IMG/VR virus record: IMGVR_UViG_3300023179_000084
Origin: an uncultured virus (IMG/VR IMGVR_UViG_3300023179_000084)
Taxonomy: Duplodnaviria; Heunggongvirae; Uroviricota; Caudoviricetes
Direction: 5' to 3' (one strand)
Length of the DNA: 20,000 bases
A model generated the notes under the pieces. It saw only the letters and a program-made list of their open reading frames with translations. It did not search any database and was not told the origin of the DNA. Each line of letters begins with the position of its first letter. The first letter of the stretch is position 1. Below, in pieces: positions 2,771 through 20,000 of the stretch. The translations under genes were made by a program, and so were the position numbers.

Positions 2771-3172
2771 TTAGTTGATTGTAATTTGTTTAGGTTTTTT
2801 ACTTTCAGGTAATTGATGCTCTAAGTAAATATTAAGCATACCATCCTTATAGTCTGCATATTTAATTTTAATATGATCTTGTAAATACAAGCTCTTCTCA
2901 AAATTACGCATTGCTAATCCTCTATAGAGATAATACTTATCTCCCTGTTCCTGTTTACGGCCACGGATTGTCAATGTGTTCTCGTGAAGTTCTACAGTTA
3001 ACTCGTCCCTGCTAAATCCAGCAGCGGCTAACTCTACAAGCCAGTTACTTTCATCAATTTTTACAATATTGTGTGGAGGATAAGTTTTTGTTGTTGCGCG
3101 AACATTATCCAGTTGATTAAAGATTCTGTCGAATCCAATTAATGCATGATTAACTAAATCTAATTGTGTCAT
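2771..3172 (-). CDS. Small heat shock protein Hsp20 (IbpA-like)
   Basis: IGFDRIF, YPPHNI, ELAAAGFS, YLYRGLAMRNF, DGMLNIYL, PESKKPKQITI. Confidence 0.93.
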   Translation of the reverse strand: MTQLDLVNHALIGFDRIFNQLDNVRATTKTYPPHNIVKIDESNWLVELAAAGFSRDELTVELHENTLTIRGRKQEQGDKYYLYRGLAMRNFEKSLYLQDHIKIKYADYKDGMLNIYLEHQLPESKKPKQITIN

Positions 3173-4334: not shown

Positions 4335-5000
4335 ATGAATTCAGCACAAATTTGGTGGTCAACACCATACATAGATAAAACTATAGCACAAATTGCTCGT
4401 GTAAGTAATCCGCAAAATCAATTAAATAGTGAATATAAAAAGCTTCTAGAATACATGCTACGTTGCGGTCATGTTAGTCCATTTGAAATGGCTAATGTTT
4501 GCATGGAAATTAATACTACTAGAGATATTGCTCGCCAAATCTTACGACATCGTTCATTTAGTTTTCAAGAATTTTCTCAACGCTATCAAACTATTGAAGT
4601 ATTAGGTAGTTTAGATACTAATCGTGAGCCACGACTACAAGATACGCGTAATAGACAAAATAGTATTAAACTAGACTATACCAATGATAGTGATTGCGTA
4701 CTAGCCGCACAGTGGGAATATAGACTAAAGTCTATAGCAGAAGATATACAACGGCACTATGACTGGGCCATTAGTAGTGGTATAGCTAAGGAACAAGCAC
4801 GCGCTATTTTACCAGAAGGTTTAACTCCTAGTCGTATGTATATGAATGGCACCATACGTAGTTGGATTTTTTATTTAAAACAACGACTAGATCCTAGTAC
4901 ACAGTTTGAACATCGTCAAGTTGCTGAAAGTGCCTTAGAACAATTAAAACTAGTAGCCCCTGTAACTATGGCTGCATTTTTTCCAGAGGAATCTACATGA
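4335..5000 (+). CDS. thyX: Flavin-dependent thymidylate synthase
   Basis: ARVS, GHVSPFE, RQILRHRSFSFQEFSQRY signature, AKEQARAILP, GTIRSW. Confidence 0.95.
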   Translation: MNSAQIWWSTPYIDKTIAQIARVSNPQNQLNSEYKKLLEYMLRCGHVSPFEMANVCMEINTTRDIARQILRHRSFSFQEFSQRYQTIEVLGSLDTNREPRLQDTRNRQNSIKLDYTNDSDCVLAAQWEYRLKSIAEDIQRHYDWAISSGIAKEQARAILPEGLTPSRMYMNGTIRSWIFYLKQRLDPSTQFEHRQVAESALEQLKLVAPVTMAAFFPEEST

Positions 5001-8195: not shown

Positions 8196-8280
8196 ACCTT
8201 AAAAATTATTTATTTGACTAATAACTGGGTTGTGTGTATAATATATATATTGATTGATACACAACCCACAAGGAAAACAA

Positions 8281-8586
8281 ATGGAAAACAAAGCACAAAA
8301 CTATACACCAGAACAAACCAAAATGATTGTTGAACAGTATCAAAGTGGAACTCCTGTTGAGCAAATTGCCGAAATGCTTGGTAAAAGTACTCGTTCAATT
8401 GTAGCTAAACTTAGCCGCGAAGGTGTTTATGTGGCTAAAAGCAAACAAGCACAGCCGCGTGTTAAGAAGTCAGAGCTTGTTGAGCGTATTGCGGCCGCAG
8501 TAGGTGTTCCTAGCGAACTCTTTGAAAGTTTAGAGAAAGCTAACTTTGAGGTTCTTGAGCATCTTGCTAACAAGCTGGGTGTTTAA
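8281..8586 (+). CDS. T5 A2/D3-family DNA-binding protein (paralog 1)
   Basis: YTPEQT...IAEMLGKSTRSIVAKLSREGVY...ESLEKAN; AAGGA RBS; promoter TTGACT-N17-TATAAT at 8214-8242. Confidence 0.75.
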   Translation: MENKAQNYTPEQTKMIVEQYQSGTPVEQIAEMLGKSTRSIVAKLSREGVYVAKSKQAQPRVKKSELVERIAAAVGVPSELFESLEKANFEVLEHLANKLGV

Positions 8587-11505: not shown

Positions 11506-11616
11506 GCTGTTGAAGGCTCGGCACACTGCCCCTGCTAGCCGTGCGGTGTGATGCCTAAAACGCCAAGCCTGAACGGTGTGTGCTTGGTGAAAGTGAGGAA
11601 TAGTCAATAGCCTAAA
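11501..11616 (+). ncRNA. Putative stem-closed structured RNA A
   Basis: TTTAGGCTGTTGA/TCAATAGCCTAAA closing stem; hairpins CACACTGC/GCGGTGTG and CGCCAAGC/GCTTGGTG. Confidence 0.6.
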
Positions 11617-11660
11617 AAAATTTTTACTTGAACTAGAGACCACAATACTGTATAATTATA

Positions 11661-11738
11661 TTATTGTGTTAGAGAACAATCGCCAGAAAGCACAACCAAC
11701 TAAATATCACTATTGCGGTGCTTCCTCTAATACAATAA
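11661..11738 (+). ncRNA. Putative small RNA B with own promoter
   Basis: Promoter TTGAAC-N17-TATAAT (11628-11656); 14-bp closing stem TTATTGTGTTAGAG/CTCTAATACAATAA; inner AAGCAC/GTGCTT. Confidence 0.6.
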
Positions 11739-11817
11739 AAATTATTTACTTGAAACTGTAATCCAACTACTATATAATATTTATATTGGCTGAGAGAACA
11801 ACACAACATGACTCAGC

Positions 11818-11965
11818 CTATTTGTTTAGTGTTATCAAGGTATCGTGCTAGGACGCTAGCACTATTCGGGTTCAATCAGCCGGAGACGAATCCTAAGATA
11901 ACTGCCTCGGCTCTGCAAGGGAAGCACCCTATTGCTAAATAGGCACGATAGCACTAAACAAATAG
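11818..11965 (+). ncRNA. Putative multi-branched RNA D
   Basis: Promoter TTGAAA-N17-TATAAT (11750-11778); 19-bp closing stem CTATTTGTTTAGTGTTATC/GATAGCACTAAACAAATAG; inner hairpins GTGCTAG/CTAGCAC, ATTCG/CGAAT, CCTATT/AATAGG. Confidence 0.65.
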
Positions 11966-11980
11966 TTAAAGGAGAATGAT

Positions 11981-12157
11981 GTGATTACTTATGGTCAATT
12001 GCTTAAGCGACTACAAAGTTTTTCTAAAGAGCAGCTCAAATGCACAGTAGTAGTCTTAGACAGTGCTTATGACGAGTATAATGAGATGAACACCATCTAC
12101 TTTAGCGGTCAAGAGAATGATATGTTCGATGAAGACCACCCCATTCTTGTGATCTAA
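11981..12157 (+). CDS. Hypothetical protein, not in ORF track
   Basis: GTG start after AAGGAG: MITYGQLLKRLQSFSKEQLKCTVVVLDSAYDEYNEMNTIYFSGQENDMFDEDHPILVI (58 aa). Confidence 0.7.
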   Translation: MITYGQLLKRLQSFSKEQLKCTVVVLDSAYDEYNEMNTIYFSGQENDMFDEDHPILVI

Positions 12158-12206
12158 AAATTTTTACTTGATTTATCAAACCCCCTAATGCTAAAATATT
12201 ATTATT

Positions 12207-12371
12207 GGGTAAACCAGGACTGCGACCCACCGAGCAGATAAGTTTTTAATTGTTGCTGAACTATTATCCTTAGCAACAGCCCACCCTAAAGGGTGAACCA
12301 GGACTGCCATTTATAAGTGCAGATAAGTTCTTAATTGTTGCTGAACCTAGCTCCTTAGCAACAGCCCAGCC
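12207..12371 (+). repeat. Tandem 84-nt duplicated structured RNA unit (12207-12286, 12291-12371)
   Basis: Conserved GGGTRAACCAGGACTGC-[var]-GCAGATAAGTTYTTAATTGTTGCTGAAC-[var]-TCCTTAGCAACAGCCC; promoter TTGATT-N18-TAAAAT at 12168-12197. Confidence 0.85.
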
Positions 12372-12379
12372 TAGTGTTA

Positions 12380-12518
12380 TTTATTAAAATTTAGAGACTG
12401 TATGCATCAGGTTGTGTTGTAACTAGTGTAGTGGTTCAACGTACCAGTAGGTTCTGGCCAGAACGCAAAAGTACTATAACCAAACACACTACAACCATTT
12501 GCTCTAAGTTTTAATAAA
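12380..12518 (+). ncRNA. Putative rod-like RNA F
   Basis: 17-bp closing stem TTTATTAAAATTTAGAG/CTCTAAGTTTTAATAAA; nested GGTTGT/ACAACC, TAGTGT/ACACTA, GTTCT/AGAAC. Confidence 0.6.
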
Positions 12519-13100
12519 GCACACTGTAGCTCTGTGGACATGATGGTAGCAATACCTGAAACGCTGTGGACCTCACTGTGTTTAGCTAAACCTCAACGTA
12601 ACCAGCAATGGCATAACAGTAACGGTTTAGGGTCAGACGCATAATGACTAAAAATGAAACATGCCTCAGCTAAGTACACTGAGTTACAAATGGTACAGGT
12701 AGCAACTACCCAGTGTTGCGTTAACTCATACGAGAATTGAGTACACAGTGGAGCTGATTCTGCCACGAGCATGGCAGCCAACCACTAGCCTCTAAGGTAT
12801 TACAGGCAGCGATGTAGTATTACCCTAACAGGCAAACTGCGCCAACAGATTAAAACTGGCAAAGCATTATACTAGTGCTGTATAAGTCGCTATCTACTAA
12901 TTGCAAGACACCACCTATGAGTGGTGATGTAGGTGCAAGCCCTACTAGCGCCAACTGCCCATCCTAGCTGATACCTAAGACTAAAAGCAAGTTGAGAACC
13001 TAAGGTTCGCTCTAGCACTCCAAGACCCTGGCTAGCTATCCAGCAACCTCAAAGAGCAAAGCTAGACTAGCAGTAGCAAGCTACTACATAAGTCTATAAA
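12518..13100 (+). ncRNA. Large structured ncRNA candidate containing a tRNA-like element
   Basis: About 580 nt with no long plus-strand ORF; many hairpins (GNRA loops GGTA-GCAA-TACC, CCA-GCAA-TGG), long-range CACTGTGT/ACACAGTG pairing; ends at a terminator. Confidence 0.55.
12886..12953 (+). other. tRNA-like element (non-canonical)
   Basis: CGCTA/TAGCG-CCA acceptor-like stem, T-arm GTAGG-TGCAAGC-CCTAC, anticodon-like CACCAC-CTATGA-GTGGTG with 6-nt loop, degenerate D-arm. Confidence 0.5.
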
Positions 13101-13111
13101 AAACGTACGTT

Positions 13112-13143
13112 CTAAAGCCCGCCACAAGCGGGCTTTAGTTTTT
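13112..13143 (+). terminator. Rho-independent terminator
   Basis: CTAAAGCCCGC-CACAA-GCGGGCTTTAG-TTTTT. Confidence 0.85.
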
Positions 13144-13232
13144 GTAAAAACTCCTATAGCAAAGAAAATTTTAGCTTGAAAAAATATCCAAGCATGTGAT
13201 ATAATAAAGTATAAATTATGGTAATTTAATAC

Positions 13233-13476: not shown

Positions 13477-14211
13477 ATGAGACTAAGAAAACAAGACTTA
13501 CAAGAACTAGAATTAGATAGACTAGCTGATCTAACAGACCAAGAACTAGAAAAATTTGTTGTTGATGAAAATTTACATAACTATAGTAGTTGGCTATTAC
13601 CACAACTAGTAAGCGTATTTGGTCAGTGGCAGTTAAAAAGCTGTGGTAAAACTACTGTTAAACACAACTGTAGCAATAACTTTCAACGAGCTTGCTGGAG
13701 ACTTACTAGACTACGTCGTAGTTTACTAGTAAAAAATCAAACACTAGAGCCTCAATATGCACAGTTTACTCCACTAATACTACTAGGATTTAAACGCATG
13801 CAAAATATTAATTACAACTATTTTAGAAATTTTAGTGGATTAGAGTGGTTGCTAGAACCAGAACTTTATAGTGCACTAGTTGTAGAACCACCACAACTTA
13901 CTAGTAGCAGACTCCTAGCCATTAGACAGCAAGGATTACTTTACAAATCTGGAAAGAACAGTGGTAAGTATAGGCAGGCTAAAAGTACTTGGCAGCTTTA
14001 TGGAATTCAAGATACCGAACTTGGTAGTTACCCTAAACTTACGCAAACTATACTAACACAGTGCTGGTTAGCGCATCCACAACTGCGTAGTAGTACCATG
14101 ATCTTAGACCTTAATAACTGGGACAACTTACCAGATACTCTTGTTGAAGAAGTATTTGTACAACAAACTACAACAAAATTGCAGCAACCAAATTTGCCTT
14201 GGTTGGATTAA
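13477..14211 (+). CDS. T5 D2-like protein
   Basis: PQYAQFTPLILLGFKRMQNINY, LLAIRQQGLLYKSGKNSGK, PKLTQTILTQCW, C-terminal LPW resemble T5-family D2 as recalled; followed by a D3-like gene as in T5. Confidence 0.65.
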   Translation: MRLRKQDLQELELDRLADLTDQELEKFVVDENLHNYSSWLLPQLVSVFGQWQLKSCGKTTVKHNCSNNFQRACWRLTRLRRSLLVKNQTLEPQYAQFTPLILLGFKRMQNINYNYFRNFSGLEWLLEPELYSALVVEPPQLTSSRLLAIRQQGLLYKSGKNSGKYRQAKSTWQLYGIQDTELGSYPKLTQTILTQCWLAHPQLRSSTMILDLNNWDNLPDTLVEEVFVQQTTTKLQQPNLPWLD

Positions 14212-14258: not shown

Positions 14259-14570
14259 ATGAAATATACTAAAGAAATTACAGATCGAATTGTTAATGAT
14301 TATAAAAGTGGAAAATCCACTCTAGAGATTGCTCAAAGTCTAGATGTCCCTGACCGTAGTGTGGTGGCAAAATTATCTAGCTTGGGTGTCTACCAAAAAA
14401 AGCAATACTTAAATAAAAGGGGTGAGGTGCCCGTCAAAAAGCAAGAGCATATTGAGCAACTAGCCCAATTGCTAGAGGTGCCATCGGATCAGCTAGAGAG
14501 TTTGGAAAAAGTAAACAAAAATGTACTTGTTTTAATTAAAAACAAATTATCTGACCCTAAACCGCACTAA
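14259..14570 (+). CDS. T5 D3/A2-family DNA-binding protein (paralog 2)
   Basis: MKYTKEIT...IAQSLDVPDRSVVAKLSSLGVY...LESLEKVNK; AAGGA RBS. Confidence 0.75.
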   Translation: MKYTKEITDRIVNDYKSGKSTLEIAQSLDVPDRSVVAKLSSLGVYQKKQYLNKRGEVPVKKQEHIEQLAQLLEVPSDQLESLEKVNKNVLVLIKNKLSDPKPH

Positions 14571-14582
14571 TTGTAGCAAACT

Positions 14583-14608
14583 AACCCAGCCATACGCTGG
14601 GTTTTTTT
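14583..14608 (+). terminator. Rho-independent terminator
   Basis: CCCAGC-CATAC-GCTGGG-TTTTTTT. Confidence 0.85.
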
Positions 14609-14625
14609 GTGCCTAGACTGGTCAG

Positions 14626-14845
14626 TTGATCTGGTTTAGGGTCAGAAATACTTACTTGACACTGGTGTTGAGTAGGCACTATAATGTTGGCGCCAAACTA
14701 CTAAATTTTTGACCCTAAATTGTAGTAGATTTTGGGTGCTGGAATGGTGGGATCAAAATTTTCTGACTTGTGTGGCTTGATCCGGTTTAGGGTCAGAATA
14801 ATTTACTTGACAATTGTCAAGGTTTTGCACTATAATATTGGCGCA
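14626..14845 (+). repeat. Two direct-repeat modules: GGTTTAGGGTCAG box + TTGACA-N18-TATAAT + TTGGCGC
   Basis: Boxes at 14633 and 14784; -35 at 14656 and 14807; -10 at 14680 and 14831. Confidence 0.8.
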
Positions 14846-14947
14846 GACTAGTAAATTTGTGGAGGTTTTCCACTTTAGCACTGGCGCAAGATTAGTTTTT
14901 GCACTTAGTTTTTGCACTGGCGCAGCACACCTAGGGGTGTGCTAAGT

Positions 14948-14995
14948 TCTAGAACCTATATCGTTCTGGTTTTTATAACGATATAGGTTCTAGAA
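14948..14995. repeat. Long inverted repeat
   Basis: TCTAGAACCTATATCGTT...AACGATATAGGTTCTAGA. Confidence 0.85.
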
Positions 14996-15046
14996 TTTGT
15001 AGCGGGATTGTGATAAGTTCTATAATTTGTTGCAACTTAGGGTCAG

Positions 15047-15128
15047 CCGACAAACGGTAGATTTGACCCGACAAACGGCGGTGATTTCGCTTGACACGGC
15101 GGCAAATTTTATGGTAAAATTTGGCGCC
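15047..15128 (+). promoter_or_regulatory. Repeat module: LytTR-type box pair + promoter + GGCGCC
   Basis: CCGACAAACGG at 15047 and 15068; TTGACA 15091-N18-TAAAAT; TTGGCGCC. Confidence 0.75.
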
Positions 15129-15249
15129 ACATGGTTCTAAATTATATAATTTATAATTGGGCTATGTACATAGCGAGCGTTATAGTTCGTATATAATGAG
15201 AATTACTGCGCTTATGATTTTTATAACAAAATTTGTCGACAAATTTCAG

Positions 15250-15420
15250 CCGACCAGCGGCAGGTTTTAGCCGATAAACGGCGGCCAAAACCCTTGACAC
15301 GTTGCAATTTTATATGATAAAATTGGCGCCCCCGCTATAAAAATTATAGCGGTCTAAATTCTATAATTTAGACCGCTATAATTTTTATATCATTTTAAAT
15401 TCTATAATTTAGAATGATAT
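15250..15420 (+). promoter_or_regulatory. Repeat module plus stacked AT palindromes
   Basis: CCGACCAGCGG 15250, CCGATAAACGG 15271; TTGACA 15294-N18-TAAAAT; GGCGCC; CCGCTATAAAAATTATAGCGG and related palindromes. Confidence 0.75.
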
Positions 15421-15423
15421 ACG

Positions 15424-15451
15424 AAAAATAACGGCCCGATCAGGGCCGTTA
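15424..15451 (-). terminator. Rho-independent terminator
   Basis: TAACGGCCC/GGGCCGTTA hairpin with T-run on minus strand. Confidence 0.75.
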
Positions 15452-15464
15452 TAGTTTTTAGAAC

Positions 15465-15770
15465 CTAGTCAACTAGGTCATGCTCAACGAATACGTCTAC
15501 AATGTGAGCAGGCATCTTTACAGTTTCCATATCGCTCCAGCGTCTAAGTGCGATAAGCTCGCCCATCTTGCGATCAAACTTATCATTACTAGAACACCAA
15601 GCAAAGCTTACGTTATAAAATTTAGCATTGCTACGGTCGATGGTAGGTTCGCAAACCATGGTCATGCCAGGTTCTAGATCGTTCGGTTTTTTAGTGTGAA
15701 CAAATCCGCCAAATTCGCGCAAAAACGCTTTGAGGTTTTTACGTTCCAATTTTTGAGTAGTGGTCAGCAT
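15465..15770 (-). CDS. Hypothetical phage protein
   Basis: 101 aa, AGGA RBS; AWCSSNDKFDRKMGELIALRR. Confidence 0.8.
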   Translation of the reverse strand: MLTTTQKLERKNLKAFLREFGGFVHTKKPNDLEPGMTMVCEPTIDRSNAKFYNVSFAWCSSNDKFDRKMGELIALRRWSDMETVKMPAHIVDVFVEHDLVD

Positions 15771-15824
15771 AGTATAATTCCTAGAGTGTTGTGAATTTTA
15801 TAGCGGGGCCGAAGCCCCTAAGAT

Positions 15825-16151
15825 TTATAACGGCTTGCTATTAGCAAGTGCGTCGAAAATCGCCTTGAGAGCGGATTTGTTCGCTTTGGTAAGCGATTCG
15901 ACATCGTTTTCGCTCAAGCGCAAAATCGCGCCGATAGCATCAGCCGTTACATCTTTTTTAACGGGTTTTTCGCCGTTCTTGTTTACATAACTTTTAGCGA
16001 TGTAAACTTTTTCACGCGAAAGTTTCGCTACAATTGAACGAACGGTTTTACCCATAGCTTGCGCTATAGATTCTACAGCGACACCCGCCTGATAATCCGC
16101 TATAATTTTTGCGGTTTGCTCGGCGGTATAGTTGACAGCCTTTTCAGCCAT
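15825..16151 (-). CDS. T5 A2-like pre-early DNA-binding protein (paralog 3)
   Basis: YTAEQT...IAQAMGKTVRSIVAKLSREKVY...ESLTKANK; AGGAG RBS; followed by GGGGC-TTCG-GCCCC hairpin (15805-15818). Confidence 0.8.
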   Translation of the reverse strand: MAEKAVNYTAEQTAKIIADYQAGVAVESIAQAMGKTVRSIVAKLSREKVYIAKSYVNKNGEKPVKKDVTADAIGAILRLSENDVESLTKANKSALKAIFDALANSKPL

Positions 16152-16289
16152 TGCTATAACTCCTAGATCGTGGGGGCTTGCGGTATTGCTTCCCTGCCAC
16201 AGAAAGCATTATACGCGCTTCCCAGCCCTAGAATGTCGCCCAGACGACAATTGGCTGCCATTCATCGGATATATAGGCGGCAGTGCCCG

Positions 16290-16374
16290 CCGACCAGTGG
16301 CACTCACCACCCGACGAACGGCGGCCCCAGGGGGTTGACACGGCCACAAAAATTATGATATAATTTTTGGCGCC
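16290..16374 (+). promoter_or_regulatory. Repeat module
   Basis: CCGACCAGTGG 16290, CCGACGAACGG 16311; TTGACA 16335-N18-TATAAT; TTGGCGCC. Confidence 0.75.
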
Positions 16375-16407
16375 ATATGGCTATAATTTTTATAACGATT
16401 TGATGTG

Positions 16408-16530
16408 CCGATAAACGGCAGACACCACCCGACAAATGGCAGCAAAATCTCTTGACACGGCCACAAAAATTATGATATAATTATATCATAATTTTGGCGC
16501 CAGCGCTCTAAATTCTATAATTTAGAGCTC
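16408..16530 (+). promoter_or_regulatory. Repeat module
   Basis: CCGATAAACGG 16408, CCGACAAATGG 16429; TTGACA 16452-N18-TATAAT within palindrome AAAATTATGATATAATTATATCATAATTTT; GGCGCC; GCTCTAAATTCTATAATTTAGAGC. Confidence 0.75.
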
Positions 16531-16538
16531 TATAAAAT

Positions 16539-16928
16539 TTATAACATTCTAACGATTGGATCGTTTTTATTTATATAATATTGATGAAATCTATTAGGTG
16601 GCAAGCCATACTCTTGCATCATCTTGCACCACATAGGCCCATGCCAAAAGTTAGTAGGATCATCGCCGTTGATTATAAAATCTGCAACATGAATTAGTTC
16701 GTGTGGTACAATTTCTAGAAGCATCTGCTGCTTATAACGGTTAAAAAATTTGCTTGAAAATTCTACCGAATGGATTTCACAGTGTGCCAATCCCGCAGTG
16801 CGCCACATACGGTTATTAATTTTAACCTTGGGAGCGTTATGTTTTTTGAGTTCGGGATAGGTTGCCTGTAGGGCAGCCCATACTAGATAAACTTGTCGTT
16901 CTACAATTTGTATCAGCGGCTTGGCCAT
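16539..16928 (-). CDS. SprT-like zinc metalloprotease
   Basis: RMWRTAG, HELIH (HExxH), HGPMW. Confidence 0.85.
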   Translation of the reverse strand: MAKPLIQIVERQVYLVWAALQATYPELKKHNAPKVKINNRMWRTAGLAHCEIHSVEFSSKFFNRYKQQMLLEIVPHELIHVADFIINGDDPTNFWHGPMWCKMMQEYGLPPNRFHQYYINKNDPIVRML

Positions 16929-17164
16929 ATTTTATACCTTAAAATTATTGCTACAAGAAACAGATTGATTGCGTAGTTTGCTATTAATATTATATCGCCC
17001 TTGGGTACGATATAAACAATCATAAAAACTTCGCCCCAAAACCACATCATTAAAAAAGGCCAGGTTAAACCGTCTGAATTTTTAGTACGATATGATTCTA
17101 GGGCTTGTGGTACTGCCGAAAAGGCGAGCATAAGCCCGCCAAGCCAACCTAGTAAATCAAGCAT
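16913..17164 (-). CDS. PQ-loop / SemiSWEET-like membrane protein
   Basis: Three hydrophobic segments, AVPQALESYRTKNSDGLTW. Confidence 0.85.
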   Translation of the reverse strand: MLDLLGWLGGLMLAFSAVPQALESYRTKNSDGLTWPFLMMWFWGEVFMIVYIVPKGDIILIANYAINLFLVAIILRYKIWPSR

Positions 17165-17843
17165 TGAAATGATCCTTGACTTGAAAGTTAGCCCATGAAT
17201 AGTTACAAATTTTAGATTGCCAATCTTTAGTTGCTATAACTTTTAGTAGCACAGGAATTTCATAGCCTGTTATATCTTCTAGAGCGGTATGTGGTTCTTT
17301 GGTGAAAGTACCCGTTACAAAACCTGCAACAGCTTCTGCATCCGTTCTAAAAGTCATATTGCCACGCTCGGTCGGAGCATTAAACAGATGGTTCTGCAAA
17401 ACATAACGCAAGTATGCTTTGCGGTGGCAAATGATTGCGGATGCCGCATACCATAGGCAAAACCTATTAGTGAAACCGTCTAGTATAATTCCTGTATTGC
17501 TACATTTTTCAGAATCAAATGTTAGGTTGTATGCAGTAAGTGTAGGGTTATAAAGTGTAATACATTTATCAAGCCAGCGATTTATAGCACCTACCGATGC
17601 CACAACGCGACGACCATCATCAAGCATAGTGTTATAATTTTTGATACGTCGCTCAAGATTAGCAGCATTGAAAAAACCGGTTTTCTCATTGTACCAAAGT
17701 GTAGAAAGTTCTAAATCTTTGACAATGACGGCAATACTGTCATAGATTTTACCACGACGATCAACGATAACTGCTGCAAAATCTATAACCTTGTTGTCGA
17801 TGGTGGTTTCAGTATCGACGACACAAAAGTATTGTTGTTTCAT
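17157..17843 (-). CDS. DEDDh 3'-5' exonuclease
   Basis: VVDTETT (ExoI), AYNLTFD (ExoII), HTALED (ExoIII). Confidence 0.85.
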   Translation of the reverse strand: MKQQYFCVVDTETTIDNKVIDFAAVIVDRRGKIYDSIAVIVKDLELSTLWYNEKTGFFNAANLERRIKNYNTMLDDGRRVVASVGAINRWLDKCITLYNPTLTAYNLTFDSEKCSNTGIILDGFTNRFCLWYAASAIICHRKAYLRYVLQNHLFNAPTERGNMTFRTDAEAVAGFVTGTFTKEPHTALEDITGYEIPVLLKVIATKDWQSKICNYSWANFQVKDHFNA

Positions 17844-17938
17844 AATTTATAACCTAATAAAGTGAGTGAGATGCTAGTATAGCACAAAAAAGCTGCAAGT
17901 GCATGCCGTTTGTCAGTTCCACACCGCCGCTCATCCGA

Positions 17939-18045
17939 CCGACCAGCGGTCGATAGCATCCGACGAACGGTCGGTCTAGCCCTTGACACGGCCACAAAAA
18001 TTATGATATAATTTTTGGCGCCACCGATATAAAAATTATATCGGT
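17939..18045 (+). promoter_or_regulatory. Repeat module
   Basis: CCGACCAGCGG 17939, CCGACGAACGG 17960; TTGACA 17983-N18-TATAAT; GGCGCC; ACCGATATAAAAATTATATCGGT. Confidence 0.75.
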
Positions 18046-18068
18046 ATGTTTTTTATAACGTGGAACCA

Positions 18069-18084
18069 TGTTCCACGTGGAACC
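18069..18084. promoter_or_regulatory. parS (ParB-binding) site
   Basis: TGTTCCACGTGGAACC palindrome matching chromosomal parS consensus; adjacent half-site ACGTGGAACC at 18058-18067. Confidence 0.75.
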
Positions 18085-18257
18085 TAGTCCCAAAGCTCTT
18101 CAGGTTCGCTGTTATAAGTTCTATATAGATCGTCGTACATTCTAGCAAGCCAGCCAGCATCTTGCCAGTCTTGTAGTGTTCCAAAACTTGGAACAACCGC
18201 ATACATTTTCTCGTAGAGTGTTATAAAATCTATTTGAAGTTGTGTGATAGTTTTCAT
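18084..18257 (-). CDS. Hypothetical protein, not in ORF track
   Basis: MKTITQLQIDFITLYEKMYAVVPSFGTLQDWQDAGWLARMYDDLYRTYNSEPEELWD (57 aa), AAGGA RBS. Confidence 0.75.
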   Translation of the reverse strand: MKTITQLQIDFITLYEKMYAVVPSFGTLQDWQDAGWLARMYDDLYRTYNSEPEELWD

Positions 18258-18472
18258 ATCAGTGTCCTTGTTTGCTGGGAATGTTATATTTAATCGTACA
18301 TAATAATTCTGTCATCTTTTATATCAATATGTTGCAGGGGGTTATCCTGCCCATATTCACTGTCATATATCATAACTCTTTTTTGTGGGTCAAATTGACG
18401 TAAAAAGTTAATCAAATCGCCAATGTTATAAATATCTTCCGATTTCATATCAGTGTCCTTGTTTGCTGGGAA
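18252..18472. repeat. 30-bp exact direct repeat (18252-18281, 18443-18472)
   Basis: TTTCATATCAGTGTCCTTGTTTGCTGGGAA twice, flanking a small ORF. Confidence 0.9.
18290..18448 (-). CDS. Hypothetical protein
   Basis: MKSEDIYNIGDLINFLRQFDPQKRV... (52 aa), AAGGA RBS. Confidence 0.7.
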   Translation of the reverse strand: MKSEDIYNIGDLINFLRQFDPQKRVMIYDSEYGQDNPLQHIDIKDDRIIMYD

Positions 18473-18923
18473 CGTAAACGCCCCTAATGTTAAAAAAATC
18501 ACAAACTGTTTTAAGATATTGAACATTGTCCTCATAGAACACAATGTCACAAATATTGAAACGATTTTTATAATCGGCTAAGATCGGTCTAAGTCCTGTA
18601 ACCTTTAGCGTACCACCTGAAGTGTTATCGCCTTCCGTTCTACTAACTATATGGTCAGGATCGCCTAACCGCGTGCTAATAAATTCAAGATCAGTGTCCC
18701 GCAAAATACGGGCAGTAGCGATAATAACAATACAGTAGGGATCAAGGTTATCTTTTTTATATTGTTCTGCAAGTGGTAACAAGCTGTCGTCCATAGCGCG
18801 ATGCTCATTTTGACGCCAGTAGCCAAGGTCGATACGCTCACCTGCGTTACTAAAAATAGTACGGTAGCGATGCAGTGAGCATACAATTGTGCCATCCATG
18901 TCATAGATTGCTATCCTTTTCAT
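18450..18923 (-). CDS. dmp: HAD-family deoxynucleoside 5'-monophosphatase (T5 Dmp-like)
   Basis: IYDMDGTIVCSLHR, DSLLPLA, IIATAR, FYEDN; resembles T5 dmp (WDLDGTIINSFHR...DTLLPLV...ICTAR) as recalled. Confidence 0.75.
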   Translation of the reverse strand: MKRIAIYDMDGTIVCSLHRYRTIFSNAGERIDLGYWRQNEHRAMDDSLLPLAEQYKKDNLDPYCIVIIATARILRDTDLEFISTRLGDPDHIVSRTEGDNTSGGTLKVTGLRPILADYKNRFNICDIVFYEDNVQYLKTVCDFFNIRGVYVPSKQGH

Positions 18924-19005
18924 TACAGTGTGCCTAGTAGTTGCTATGCCATAATTATACACGAAATCCCTGCCGTTGAAACCCCTAAAATCTGCCGCAC
19001 ATCAG

Positions 19006-19107
19006 ACGACCAGTGGTAGATTTGAGCCGACGAACGGTCACCAAAACCCTTGACACGGTTGCAAATTATATGCTATAATTTGGCGCCTCAGCTATAATTT
19101 TTATAGC
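19006..19107 (+). promoter_or_regulatory. Repeat module
   Basis: ACGACCAGTGG 19006, CCGACGAACGG 19027; TTGACA 19050-N18-TATAAT; TTGGCGCC; GCTATAATTTTTATAGC. Confidence 0.75.
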
Positions 19108-19124
19108 GATTTAATTTTTATAGC

Positions 19125-19140
19125 TGTTTCACGTGGAACC
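19125..19140. promoter_or_regulatory. parS (ParB-binding) site
   Basis: TGTTTCACGTGGAACC. Confidence 0.7.
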
Positions 19141-19269
19141 TGTGCTTGGTTTCACCGTTTTTCTGTTCTAGTTTTTTGTTCCTGTGCTTGCCCGCACCGG
19201 TTTGGGTACGCAGTGGCCCCTGCCGAGGCTTTTGTGCTAATTTATAGATTGGTTGTACAGGTATAATTT

Positions 19270-19968: not shown

Positions 19969-20000
19969 CTTGCTATCCTCTGTCTTGCTATGCTTGTAAT

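Follow-up and report, generated by a model that had tools for sequence, protein, structure and literature searches.

Reverse promoter cassettes at gene-unit boundaries in an uncultured, probably T5-like virus

PeSL cassettes of T4-type phages, as described in PMC2839356 and PMC4122927, join a near-consensus sigma70 promoter to a stem-loop and drive the gene downstream. In phage T5, the terminal repeat is the first DNA to enter the cell, and a repeat block without genes closes it next to the early genes, according to AY543070 and the account in 10.1101/866236. T7 DNA is described as being drawn into the cell by host RNA polymerase transcribing inward from the A1-A3 promoters (PMC3737178), head-on collisions at hairpins that terminate poorly alone are reported to block read-through in Escherichia coli, with the hairpin setting the place of the block (10.1101/2022.10.23.513370), and the lytic phage phi29 is described as carrying chromosomal-type parS sites that are used by host Spo0J (PMC2731898). 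Here we describe a repeated promoter cassette in a 20,000-nucleotide stretch (the window) of IMGVR_UViG_3300023179_000084, which is likely an uncultured, Demerecviridae-like freshwater relative of phage T5. The cassettes likely lie in the pre-early terminal repeat of this phage, where their promoters face against its genes. They are real and conserved. With a probability of about 40%, we think that they are unit-junction modules where parked host sigma70 RNA polymerase confronts the upstream gene unit head-on, with a phased operator array common to the module and the weak promoter of the next unit.

Reverse promoters and cassette anatomy

A search of the window for TTGACA-N18-TA(T/A)AAT returned eight exact matches, all on the + strand. 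Dinucleotide shuffling of the window (200 times) gave a mean of 0.07 matches and a maximum of 1, and no shuffle reached eight. These sites had been listed in an earlier note on this DNA, and every coordinate that it gave holds a match. In the 73,723-bp contig, ten sites match at least 11 of 12 consensus letters with an 18-bp spacer, namely the eight, one at 13176 and one far outside the window. GGCGCC occurs eight times in the whole contig, and seven of the eight lie inside the cassettes. The note had put 1-5 nt before the TGGCGC that follows the promoter; we found 0-3 nt (0 at 15294), and 13 nt at 16452. It was right that the gene promoters at 1.6-11.8 kb use 17-bp spacers, as all seven with at least 11 of 12 letters do, but an 18-bp promoter at 13176 also precedes a gene (13477-14211). 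Its statement that all local genes lie on the minus strand fails for the gene just left of 14656, which is on the + strand and is ended by a terminator at 14583-14603.

The eight sites, which the note had treated as one set, form two classes. Class counts were made on 179 distinct promoter-like sites with full flanks from the window and related viral contigs, and these comprise 101 class A sites, 13 class B sites, 9 class C sites (beside terS), 1 other site that bears GGCGC and 55 others. Six of the eight window sites are class A. In this class, two CCGAC-N3-CGG boxes start 23-24 and 44-45 nt ahead of the -35 element, and these are followed by the -35, an extended -10 within a palindrome, GGCGC, further hairpins and, in the cassettes nearest terS, a parS site. 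The other two sites (14656 and 14807) are class B, which lacks the -10 palindrome and the boxes and has a TTAGGGTCAG box. The features of the region are as follows.

14656..14694, + strand: class B reverse promoter (-35, 18-bp spacer, -10, GGCGCC); TTAGGGTCAG box at 14636; without -10 palindrome.
14807..14845, + strand: class B reverse promoter; TTAGGGTCAG box at 14787; 14-bp palindrome over the -35; further TGGCGCA at 14882 and 14918.
15047..15128, + strand: class A cassette; boxes at 15047 and 15068; -35 at 15091; TAAAAT in palindrome 15103-15123; GGCGCC.
15250..15389, + strand: class A cassette; boxes at 15250 and 15271; -35 at 15294; palindrome 15305-15325; hairpins 15332-15352 and 15336-15389 (25-bp arms).
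16290..16374, + strand: class A cassette; boxes at 16290 and 16311; -35 at 16335; palindrome 16347-16369; 41 nt identical with the 17983 copy.
16408..16528, + strand: class A cassette, tandem copy; boxes at 16408 and 16429; -35 at 16452; palindrome with 15-bp arms 16466-16495; hairpin 16505-16528.
17939..18084, + strand: class A cassette with parS; boxes at 17939 and 17960; -35 at 17983; palindrome 17995-18017; terminator-like hairpin 18023-18045; hairpin 18058-18078; parS 18069-18084.
19006..19155, + strand: class A cassette with parS; boxes at 19006 and 19027; -35 at 19050; palindrome 19062-19082; parS 19125-19140; terminator-like hairpin 19133-19155.
16208..16268, - strand: predicted partner promoter of the A2-family gene; -10 at 16208-16213 (127 nt from the 16335 -35); third box 16258-16268; poor -35.
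17876..17916, - strand: predicted partner promoter of the 17843 operon; -10 TATACT at 17876-17881 (107 nt from the 17983 -35); third box 17906-17916.
18954..18959, - strand: predicted partner -10 of the dmp-like gene, 96 nt from the 19050 -35.
15428..15452, both strands: predicted intrinsic terminator-like hairpin after the last minus-strand gene.
14583..14603, + strand: predicted intrinsic terminator-like hairpin ending the + strand genes before the cassette block.
18450..18962, - strand: homolog of T5 pre-early dmp (deoxynucleotide monophosphatase); blastp E 3e-10, family hidden Markov model (HMM) E 3e-12.
15825..16151, - strand: A2/D5-family DNA-binding protein; PHROG D5-like, family HMM against T5 A2 E 8e-5.
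17157..17843, - strand: conserved 228-aa gene, phrog_20187 (no assigned function), heading an operon with PQ-loop (16913-17164) and SprT-like (16539-16928) genes.

The class A position -15 is T in 101 of 101 copies, and TG is present in 80 of 101 compared with 13 of 34 promoters with 17-bp spacers. Because these positions were left free by the scan patterns, the extended -10 signature is evidence for a promoter beyond the search pattern. The class A -10 lies inside a perfect inverted repeat with arms of at least 8 bp in 95 of 101 copies, a count that rises to 99 when the centre window is widened. Such a repeat was found in 0.3% of cases after spacer shuffling, in 0 of 34 17-bp promoters and in none of the class B (0/13) or class C (0/9) sites. 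There are 37 different repeat sequences, and the 22 TAAAAT variants have TTTT on the left arm, that is, compensating changes; the T-run after the -10 also varies with the A-run before it. The six class A cores of the window have fold z values of -1.8 to -5.6, whereas class B and three of four control promoters are unremarkable in folding (control 13176, z = -1.9). Hairpins of -16 to -39 kcal/mol over 90 nt are predicted for the reverse transcripts. Among the 101 class A copies, 2 have a U-tract after the second hairpin on the gene strand and 22 have one on the reverse strand. No Rfam match other than tRNAs was found.

Two other readings of the anatomy were set aside. The boxes do not behave as mini-hairpins, their flanks pairing inconsistently (C-C in 42 of 193). 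A single-strand promoter of the Frpo-like kind was also considered; only the -10 and not the -35 is paired.

Orientation, phasing and genomic setting

The cassettes oppose the genes beside them and lead into none. Two scans of viral contigs gave overlapping sets of loci, and 46 of these loci were mapped, or 41 after removal of five known duplicates; loci were oriented by majority and gene direction was read independently. In these 41 loci, 131 of 131 class A and B cassettes oppose the local genes. A Shine-Dalgarno sequence and start codon follow within about 105 nt in 2 of 114 class A/B cassettes, compared with 11 of 34 17-bp promoters, which bears out the observation in the earlier note that the sites lead into no open reading frame (ORF). 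The cassettes recur in about 40 related contigs at gene-unit boundaries. The constant order is terL, terS, an A2-family gene, a cassette, dmp, a cassette, the 228-aa gene with the PQ-loop and SprT-like genes, a cassette, an A2-family gene, a small gene, up to two class A and up to two class B cassettes and then genes in the opposite direction.

Wherever a class A cassette precedes a gene unit, a predicted gene promoter adjoins it in back-to-back arrangement; the -10 of this gene promoter is good and its -35 is poor, matching at three or fewer of six positions in 53 of 69 junctions. A partner -10 was obtained for 69 of 70 distinct class A junctions, and its distance from the reverse -35 is always 96, 105-108, 116-117 or 126-128 nt, values about 10.5 bp apart. 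At a period of 10.5 bp, the 16 distinct family-distance values gave a resultant of 0.89 (p ~3e-6), and on nine clusters the resultant was 0.97 (Rayleigh p ~2e-4). As controls, periods of 7, 8 and 13 gave nothing and periods of 9 and 12 gave weaker signals. A third box, on the gene strand, was found in 40 of 69 junctions, and in 37 of these 40 it lies 35-36, 44-45 or 55-56 nt before the partner -10. This arrangement suggests that proteins bound on one helix face may link the reverse and gene promoters, and the A2-family paralogs would be the obvious candidate box binders.

The window has two parS-like sites (18069-18084 and 19125-19140), each with one mismatch to the 16-bp sequence that we take to be the chromosomal consensus, where 0.04 would be expected. 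The perfect sequence TGTTTCACGTGAAACA occurs 13 times among class A copies. Downstream of 61 of the 101 class A copies there is a parS core, which the other classes lack; by junction, it is present in 34 of 35 cassettes before dmp, in 29 of 29 before the 228-aa gene and in 0 of 19 before the second A2-family gene. Thus, parS is confined to the cassettes nearest terS, that is, nearest the probable left end, and this is conserved in relatives.

Which end of the DNA enters first decides where the promoters point. The T5 motif TAACCGCC occurs at T5 base 35 and just past the right end of the terminal repeat, and nowhere in T5 13-62 kb. The same motif or an A-variant is present in the gap between terS and the first gene in 31 of 40 loci, compared with 13 hits in 633 kb of background, and eight of the nine loci missing TAACCGCC have a one-letter variant. 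Based on synteny, the dmp/A2 homology and this left-end motif, the entering end would be the terS side, beyond window base 20000. Because the cassettes oppose the genes, the gene promoters would then point inward and the cassette promoters outward, toward DNA already inside the cell. A gene-free block of repeats and palindromes (14570-15465) lies at the early-gene end of the pre-early region. No consensus DnaA box was found in window 11-20 kb in a search that did not cover variant boxes.

Other repeats lie near these borders. TTTAGGGTCA repeats are present at 12627, 13329, 14238, 14560, 14636, 14718, 14787 and 15037 and in the terS gap of L003, L025 and L028. They face inward and gather around the two probable borders of the terminal repeat, in some cases as tandem TTTAGGG. 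They are a possible analog of the T5 DRD repeats and candidate marks for terminus processing. In the terS gap of part of the contigs (for example, L005:2115-2397) a class C reverse promoter lies 56-57 nt from the first A2-family promoter, and the TAACCGCC motif follows the class C promoter on the other strand.

The T5-like pre-early setting recognized in the earlier note is supported by the dmp and A2 homologs and by terL-terS, which adjoin the region in relatives. TerL of the relative L003 is 49% identical to Demerecviridae TerL among the best 40 matches, and we take the gene order of the contig, read by eye from ORF translations, to be T5-like. The dmp homolog matched 519 records, and those inspected included T5-like dmp/PNK genes. 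Three A2-family paralogs (14259-14570, +; 8254-8586, +; 15825-16151, -) are 42-47% identical and all D5-like; a fourth A2/D5-family copy lies beside terS in relatives, so that three to four paralogs accompany dmp with no detectable A1. T5 A1 gave no match in the contig, which is incomplete, or in the loci by tblastn and family HMMs. The A2-family protein had no tblastn match, and its 120 listed homologs are without useful names. No DNA similarity to annotated phages was found. A scan of bacterial genomes gave seven matches, three of them pieces of this phage group in metagenome-assembled genome bins and four lone promoters without a palindrome. An origin as a host chromosomal element was rejected, since the bacterial matches were only these stray phage pieces and palindrome-less promoters; that scan found no host.

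Gene units are gained and lost around the cassettes. The window, L001 and L051 carry a four-gene unit along with its cassette; L049 has a replacement at this place, and most other loci lack the unit. Cassettes also differ in number through tandem copies. As repeats, the cassettes also serve as exchange points for gene units. A joint of 16200 to 18954, which swaps a promoter module, was found in contigs of 4 of 4 runs, and five further joints link cassette regions. These joints most likely reflect related strains, because likeness was 90% and sides were as short as 24 letters. In two metatranscriptome runs of one sample (X15 and X20, assembled contigs), 30 of 30 and 23 of 30 bins were covered, silent stretches included, and the data hold no strand or start information.

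Elsewhere in the window, the gene at 13477-14211 is a conserved 244-aa ORFan beside the repeat border and behind the 13176 promoter; it has no usable Pfam, PHROG or Atlas match and varies among strains. About 1.5 kb at 11590-13150 is almost free of ORFs behind several + strand promoters, with a repeated unit at 12240-12370, a closing terminator at 13112 and no Rfam match. This stretch may encode stable RNAs like those annotated in T5. A promoter-like site matching 11 of 12 letters with a 17-bp spacer (16132-16160, +) lies inside the start of the A2-family gene; similar sites occur in several relatives, and it may be a by-product of coding. Other genes encode an endonuclease (171-1208, phrog_8420, presumably of the UV-damage type), Hsp20 (2771-3172) and thymidylate synthase (4335-5000), and there are five tRNAs.

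Proposed function and alternatives

Starting from the observed anatomy, conservation, phasing, orientation to the genes and absence of a downstream ORF, we infer that host sigma70 RNA polymerase loads at the reverse promoter and parks as a roadblock between gene blocks. The parked polymerase would meet the polymerase from the upstream unit head-on, and read-through would stop at hairpins that lack a gene-strand U-tract. Short hairpin transcripts of about 35-100 nt would arise from the reverse promoters. The phased boxes, bound by an A2-family protein, would form the operator array shared with the next promoter, and the four-cassette stack would be the final barrier between the pre-early and early regions. 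Collision-driven termination fits because a gene-less reverse promoter aims at U-less hairpins at unit ends, and the phasing adds a link between this promoter and the next gene promoter. RNA polymerase loading and short antisense RNAs at the cassettes, both raised in the earlier note, are plausible.

Several points weigh against this proposal. An ordinary terminator (15428-15452) already follows the last minus-strand gene, and the four cassettes beyond it have neither a unit to stop nor a partner promoter. A roadblock requires neither the -10 palindrome nor parS. Wobble positions, which are weak evidence for the strand that folds, favor the gene strand over the reverse strand (13 versus 6; by energy, 52 versus 40). 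In the phasing analysis, first copies of tandem pairs were skipped and the -10 rule was set after first results had been viewed (under a simpler rule, two distances of 66 and, for tandem copies, distances of 64 and 244 had appeared), and the counts include related sequences and are therefore not phylogenetically independent. In 29 of the 69 junctions, a third box was not detected.

The four unit-less cassettes, the palindrome and parS leave room for a supercoiling-coupled switch or an entry brake. A bidirectional switch is possible, although we hold it doubtful. The phased boxes would bind an activator or repressor, likely A2-family paralogs, the reverse promoter would serve either as a decoy or as a partner, coupled through supercoiling, that sets when the weak gene promoter goes on and off, and termination would be secondary. 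The phasing itself speaks for this, as do boxes centred near -42, -52 and -62 relative to the partner promoter, positions that resemble those of CRP class II/I, and the AT-rich palindromes over the -10 could extrude. Negative supercoiling is described as favoring long spacers (PMC9303308), and promoters with 18-bp spacers as having fallen most on relaxation (PMC8695583). However, the spacer effect given in PMC9303308 is only about twofold, box binding is a prediction, a partner gene is missing for the four cassettes at 14656-15294 and boxes are missing from class B. It is rather unlikely that the cassettes are an entry brake, in which inward pre-early transcription would reel in later DNA as in T7, outward polymerases stacked where the first-entering region ends would stop it and host ParB on parS would hold the left end, giving two-step entry without A1 or DnaA boxes. 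An extension of this idea, for which our expectation is just as low, has palindrome-gated promoters load the outward polymerases and A2-family proteins on the phased boxes release the brake, so that the T7 entry motor would be reversed as a stop signal. The four-cassette gene-free block at the place of the T5 injection stop region, the lack of consensus DnaA boxes in 11-20 kb and of an A1 match, the parS sites in terS-proximal cassettes and T7 entry by host RNA polymerase as described in PMC3737178 are all in keeping with a brake. Yet two-step entry and the termini of this lineage are carried over from T5, cassettes also stand between internal units and an ordinary terminator precedes the block.

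Other functions are less easily reconciled with the cassettes. Strong reverse promoters, stable predicted hairpin transcripts and terminator-like calls at 18023 and 19133 would suit short antisense RNAs that silence pre-early mRNAs by pairing at the 3' ends, but this is improbable: a reverse-strand U-tract is present in so few copies (22/101), the predicted RNAs barely reach coding sequence, Rfam gave no match and the phasing is unexplained. The earlier note had read the sites as RNA polymerase pulling or ratchet sites for genome internalisation, or as an RNA polymerase sponge, which now seems highly improbable. Near-perfect, co-oriented promoters in a probable first-entering region are what pulling would use, and it would fit if this lineage injects the opposite end first. 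Under terS-side entry, by contrast, the sites would point to DNA already inside, hairpins follow at once (within about 10-60 nt) and the phasing ties the sites to gene promoters. T7-type pulling needs inward transcription, and the idea therefore fits the gene promoters and not the eight sites. As a sponge, eight sites per infecting genome would be too few to matter. We give equally little credence to DNA-processing marks, in which GGCGC would be a T5-type nick site or the promoters would be primers for duplication of the terminal repeat; GGCGC is on the strand equivalent to the nicked strand of T5, where major nicks are described at R/GCGCRGG (PMC3517423, PMC10644984), but the region has no exact R-GCGC-RGG and R-GCGC is common genome-wide. 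There is only a very slight chance that these are PeSL-type recombination cassettes whose promoter look is a relic and whose palindromes are kept perfect by template switching. The gain and loss of the four-gene unit with its cassette, tandem copy variation and the 16200 to 18954 joint (probably from related strains) agree with recombination, but it leaves the kept extended -10, 18-bp spacer, phasing and fixed orientation unexplained.

The pausing of T5-like DNA entry and pre-early shut-off are a long-open question. The cassette is a compact, repeated and clonable element with more than 100 natural variants, in which compensating changes and phasing mark the parts that matter, and E. coli reporters would allow tests that need no phage. 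Should the reverse promoter prove to be a dedicated roadblock, it would be a promoter maintained solely for positioning RNA polymerase and, as a part, a natural insulator.

Comparison with known systems

Searches of the open-access literature found no description of such a cassette and nothing usable on cruciform-gated promoters. The T5 and Vibrio phage VspSw_1 regions, the two phages tested, have no reverse 18-bp promoters matching at least 11 of 12 letters and no parS. At the T5 left end (L009:60-130), an outward promoter-like site matching 10 of 12 letters at 114 has its -10 in the loop of a long hairpin after dmp.

As in phi29, the cassettes appear to belong to a lytic phage with chromosomal-type parS and no partition genes detected in the window, but here the predicted parS sites are built into promoter cassettes near one end. 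The E. coli collision-driven bidirectional terminators of 10.1101/2022.10.23.513370 likewise have convergent promoters that meet at a hairpin with a poor U-tract; there both polymerases are described as transcribing genes, whereas here one promoter is apparently dedicated and lies a few tens of bases from the hairpin. The T7 A1-A3 promoters are also strong host promoters in early-entering DNA, but are described as pointing inward and giving long transcripts (PMC3737178), whereas those of the cassettes would point outward by T5 geometry and meet hairpins at once.

The locus shares with T5, as described in 10.1101/866236, a block of repeats and palindromes, free of genes, where the dmp/A2 region meets the early genes, TAACCGCC near the left end and host-protein binding sites in first-entering DNA, which here are predicted. 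It differs in that no consensus DnaA boxes or A1 were detected and the genes are all inward, and the T5 major nick consensus R/GCGCRGG is absent from the region. PeSL cassettes also have a near-consensus sigma70 promoter with a stem-loop, sometimes over the -10, are intergenic and flank gained or lost units, but are described with a 17-bp spacer and end in the Shine-Dalgarno sequence and start codon of a downstream gene (PMC2839356, PMC4122927). Here a stem-loop covers the -10 in 99 of 101 class A and 0 of 13 class B copies, and the promoter is reversed, ORF-less and 18-bp spaced, with phased boxes, AT-rich stems and parS. Co-orientation with a Shine-Dalgarno sequence and start codon is seen in 2 of 114 cassettes, and 131 of 131 oppose the genes. 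The cassette acts like a PeSL turned around, in a setting like that of the T5 injection stop signal (iss), and belongs to neither group.

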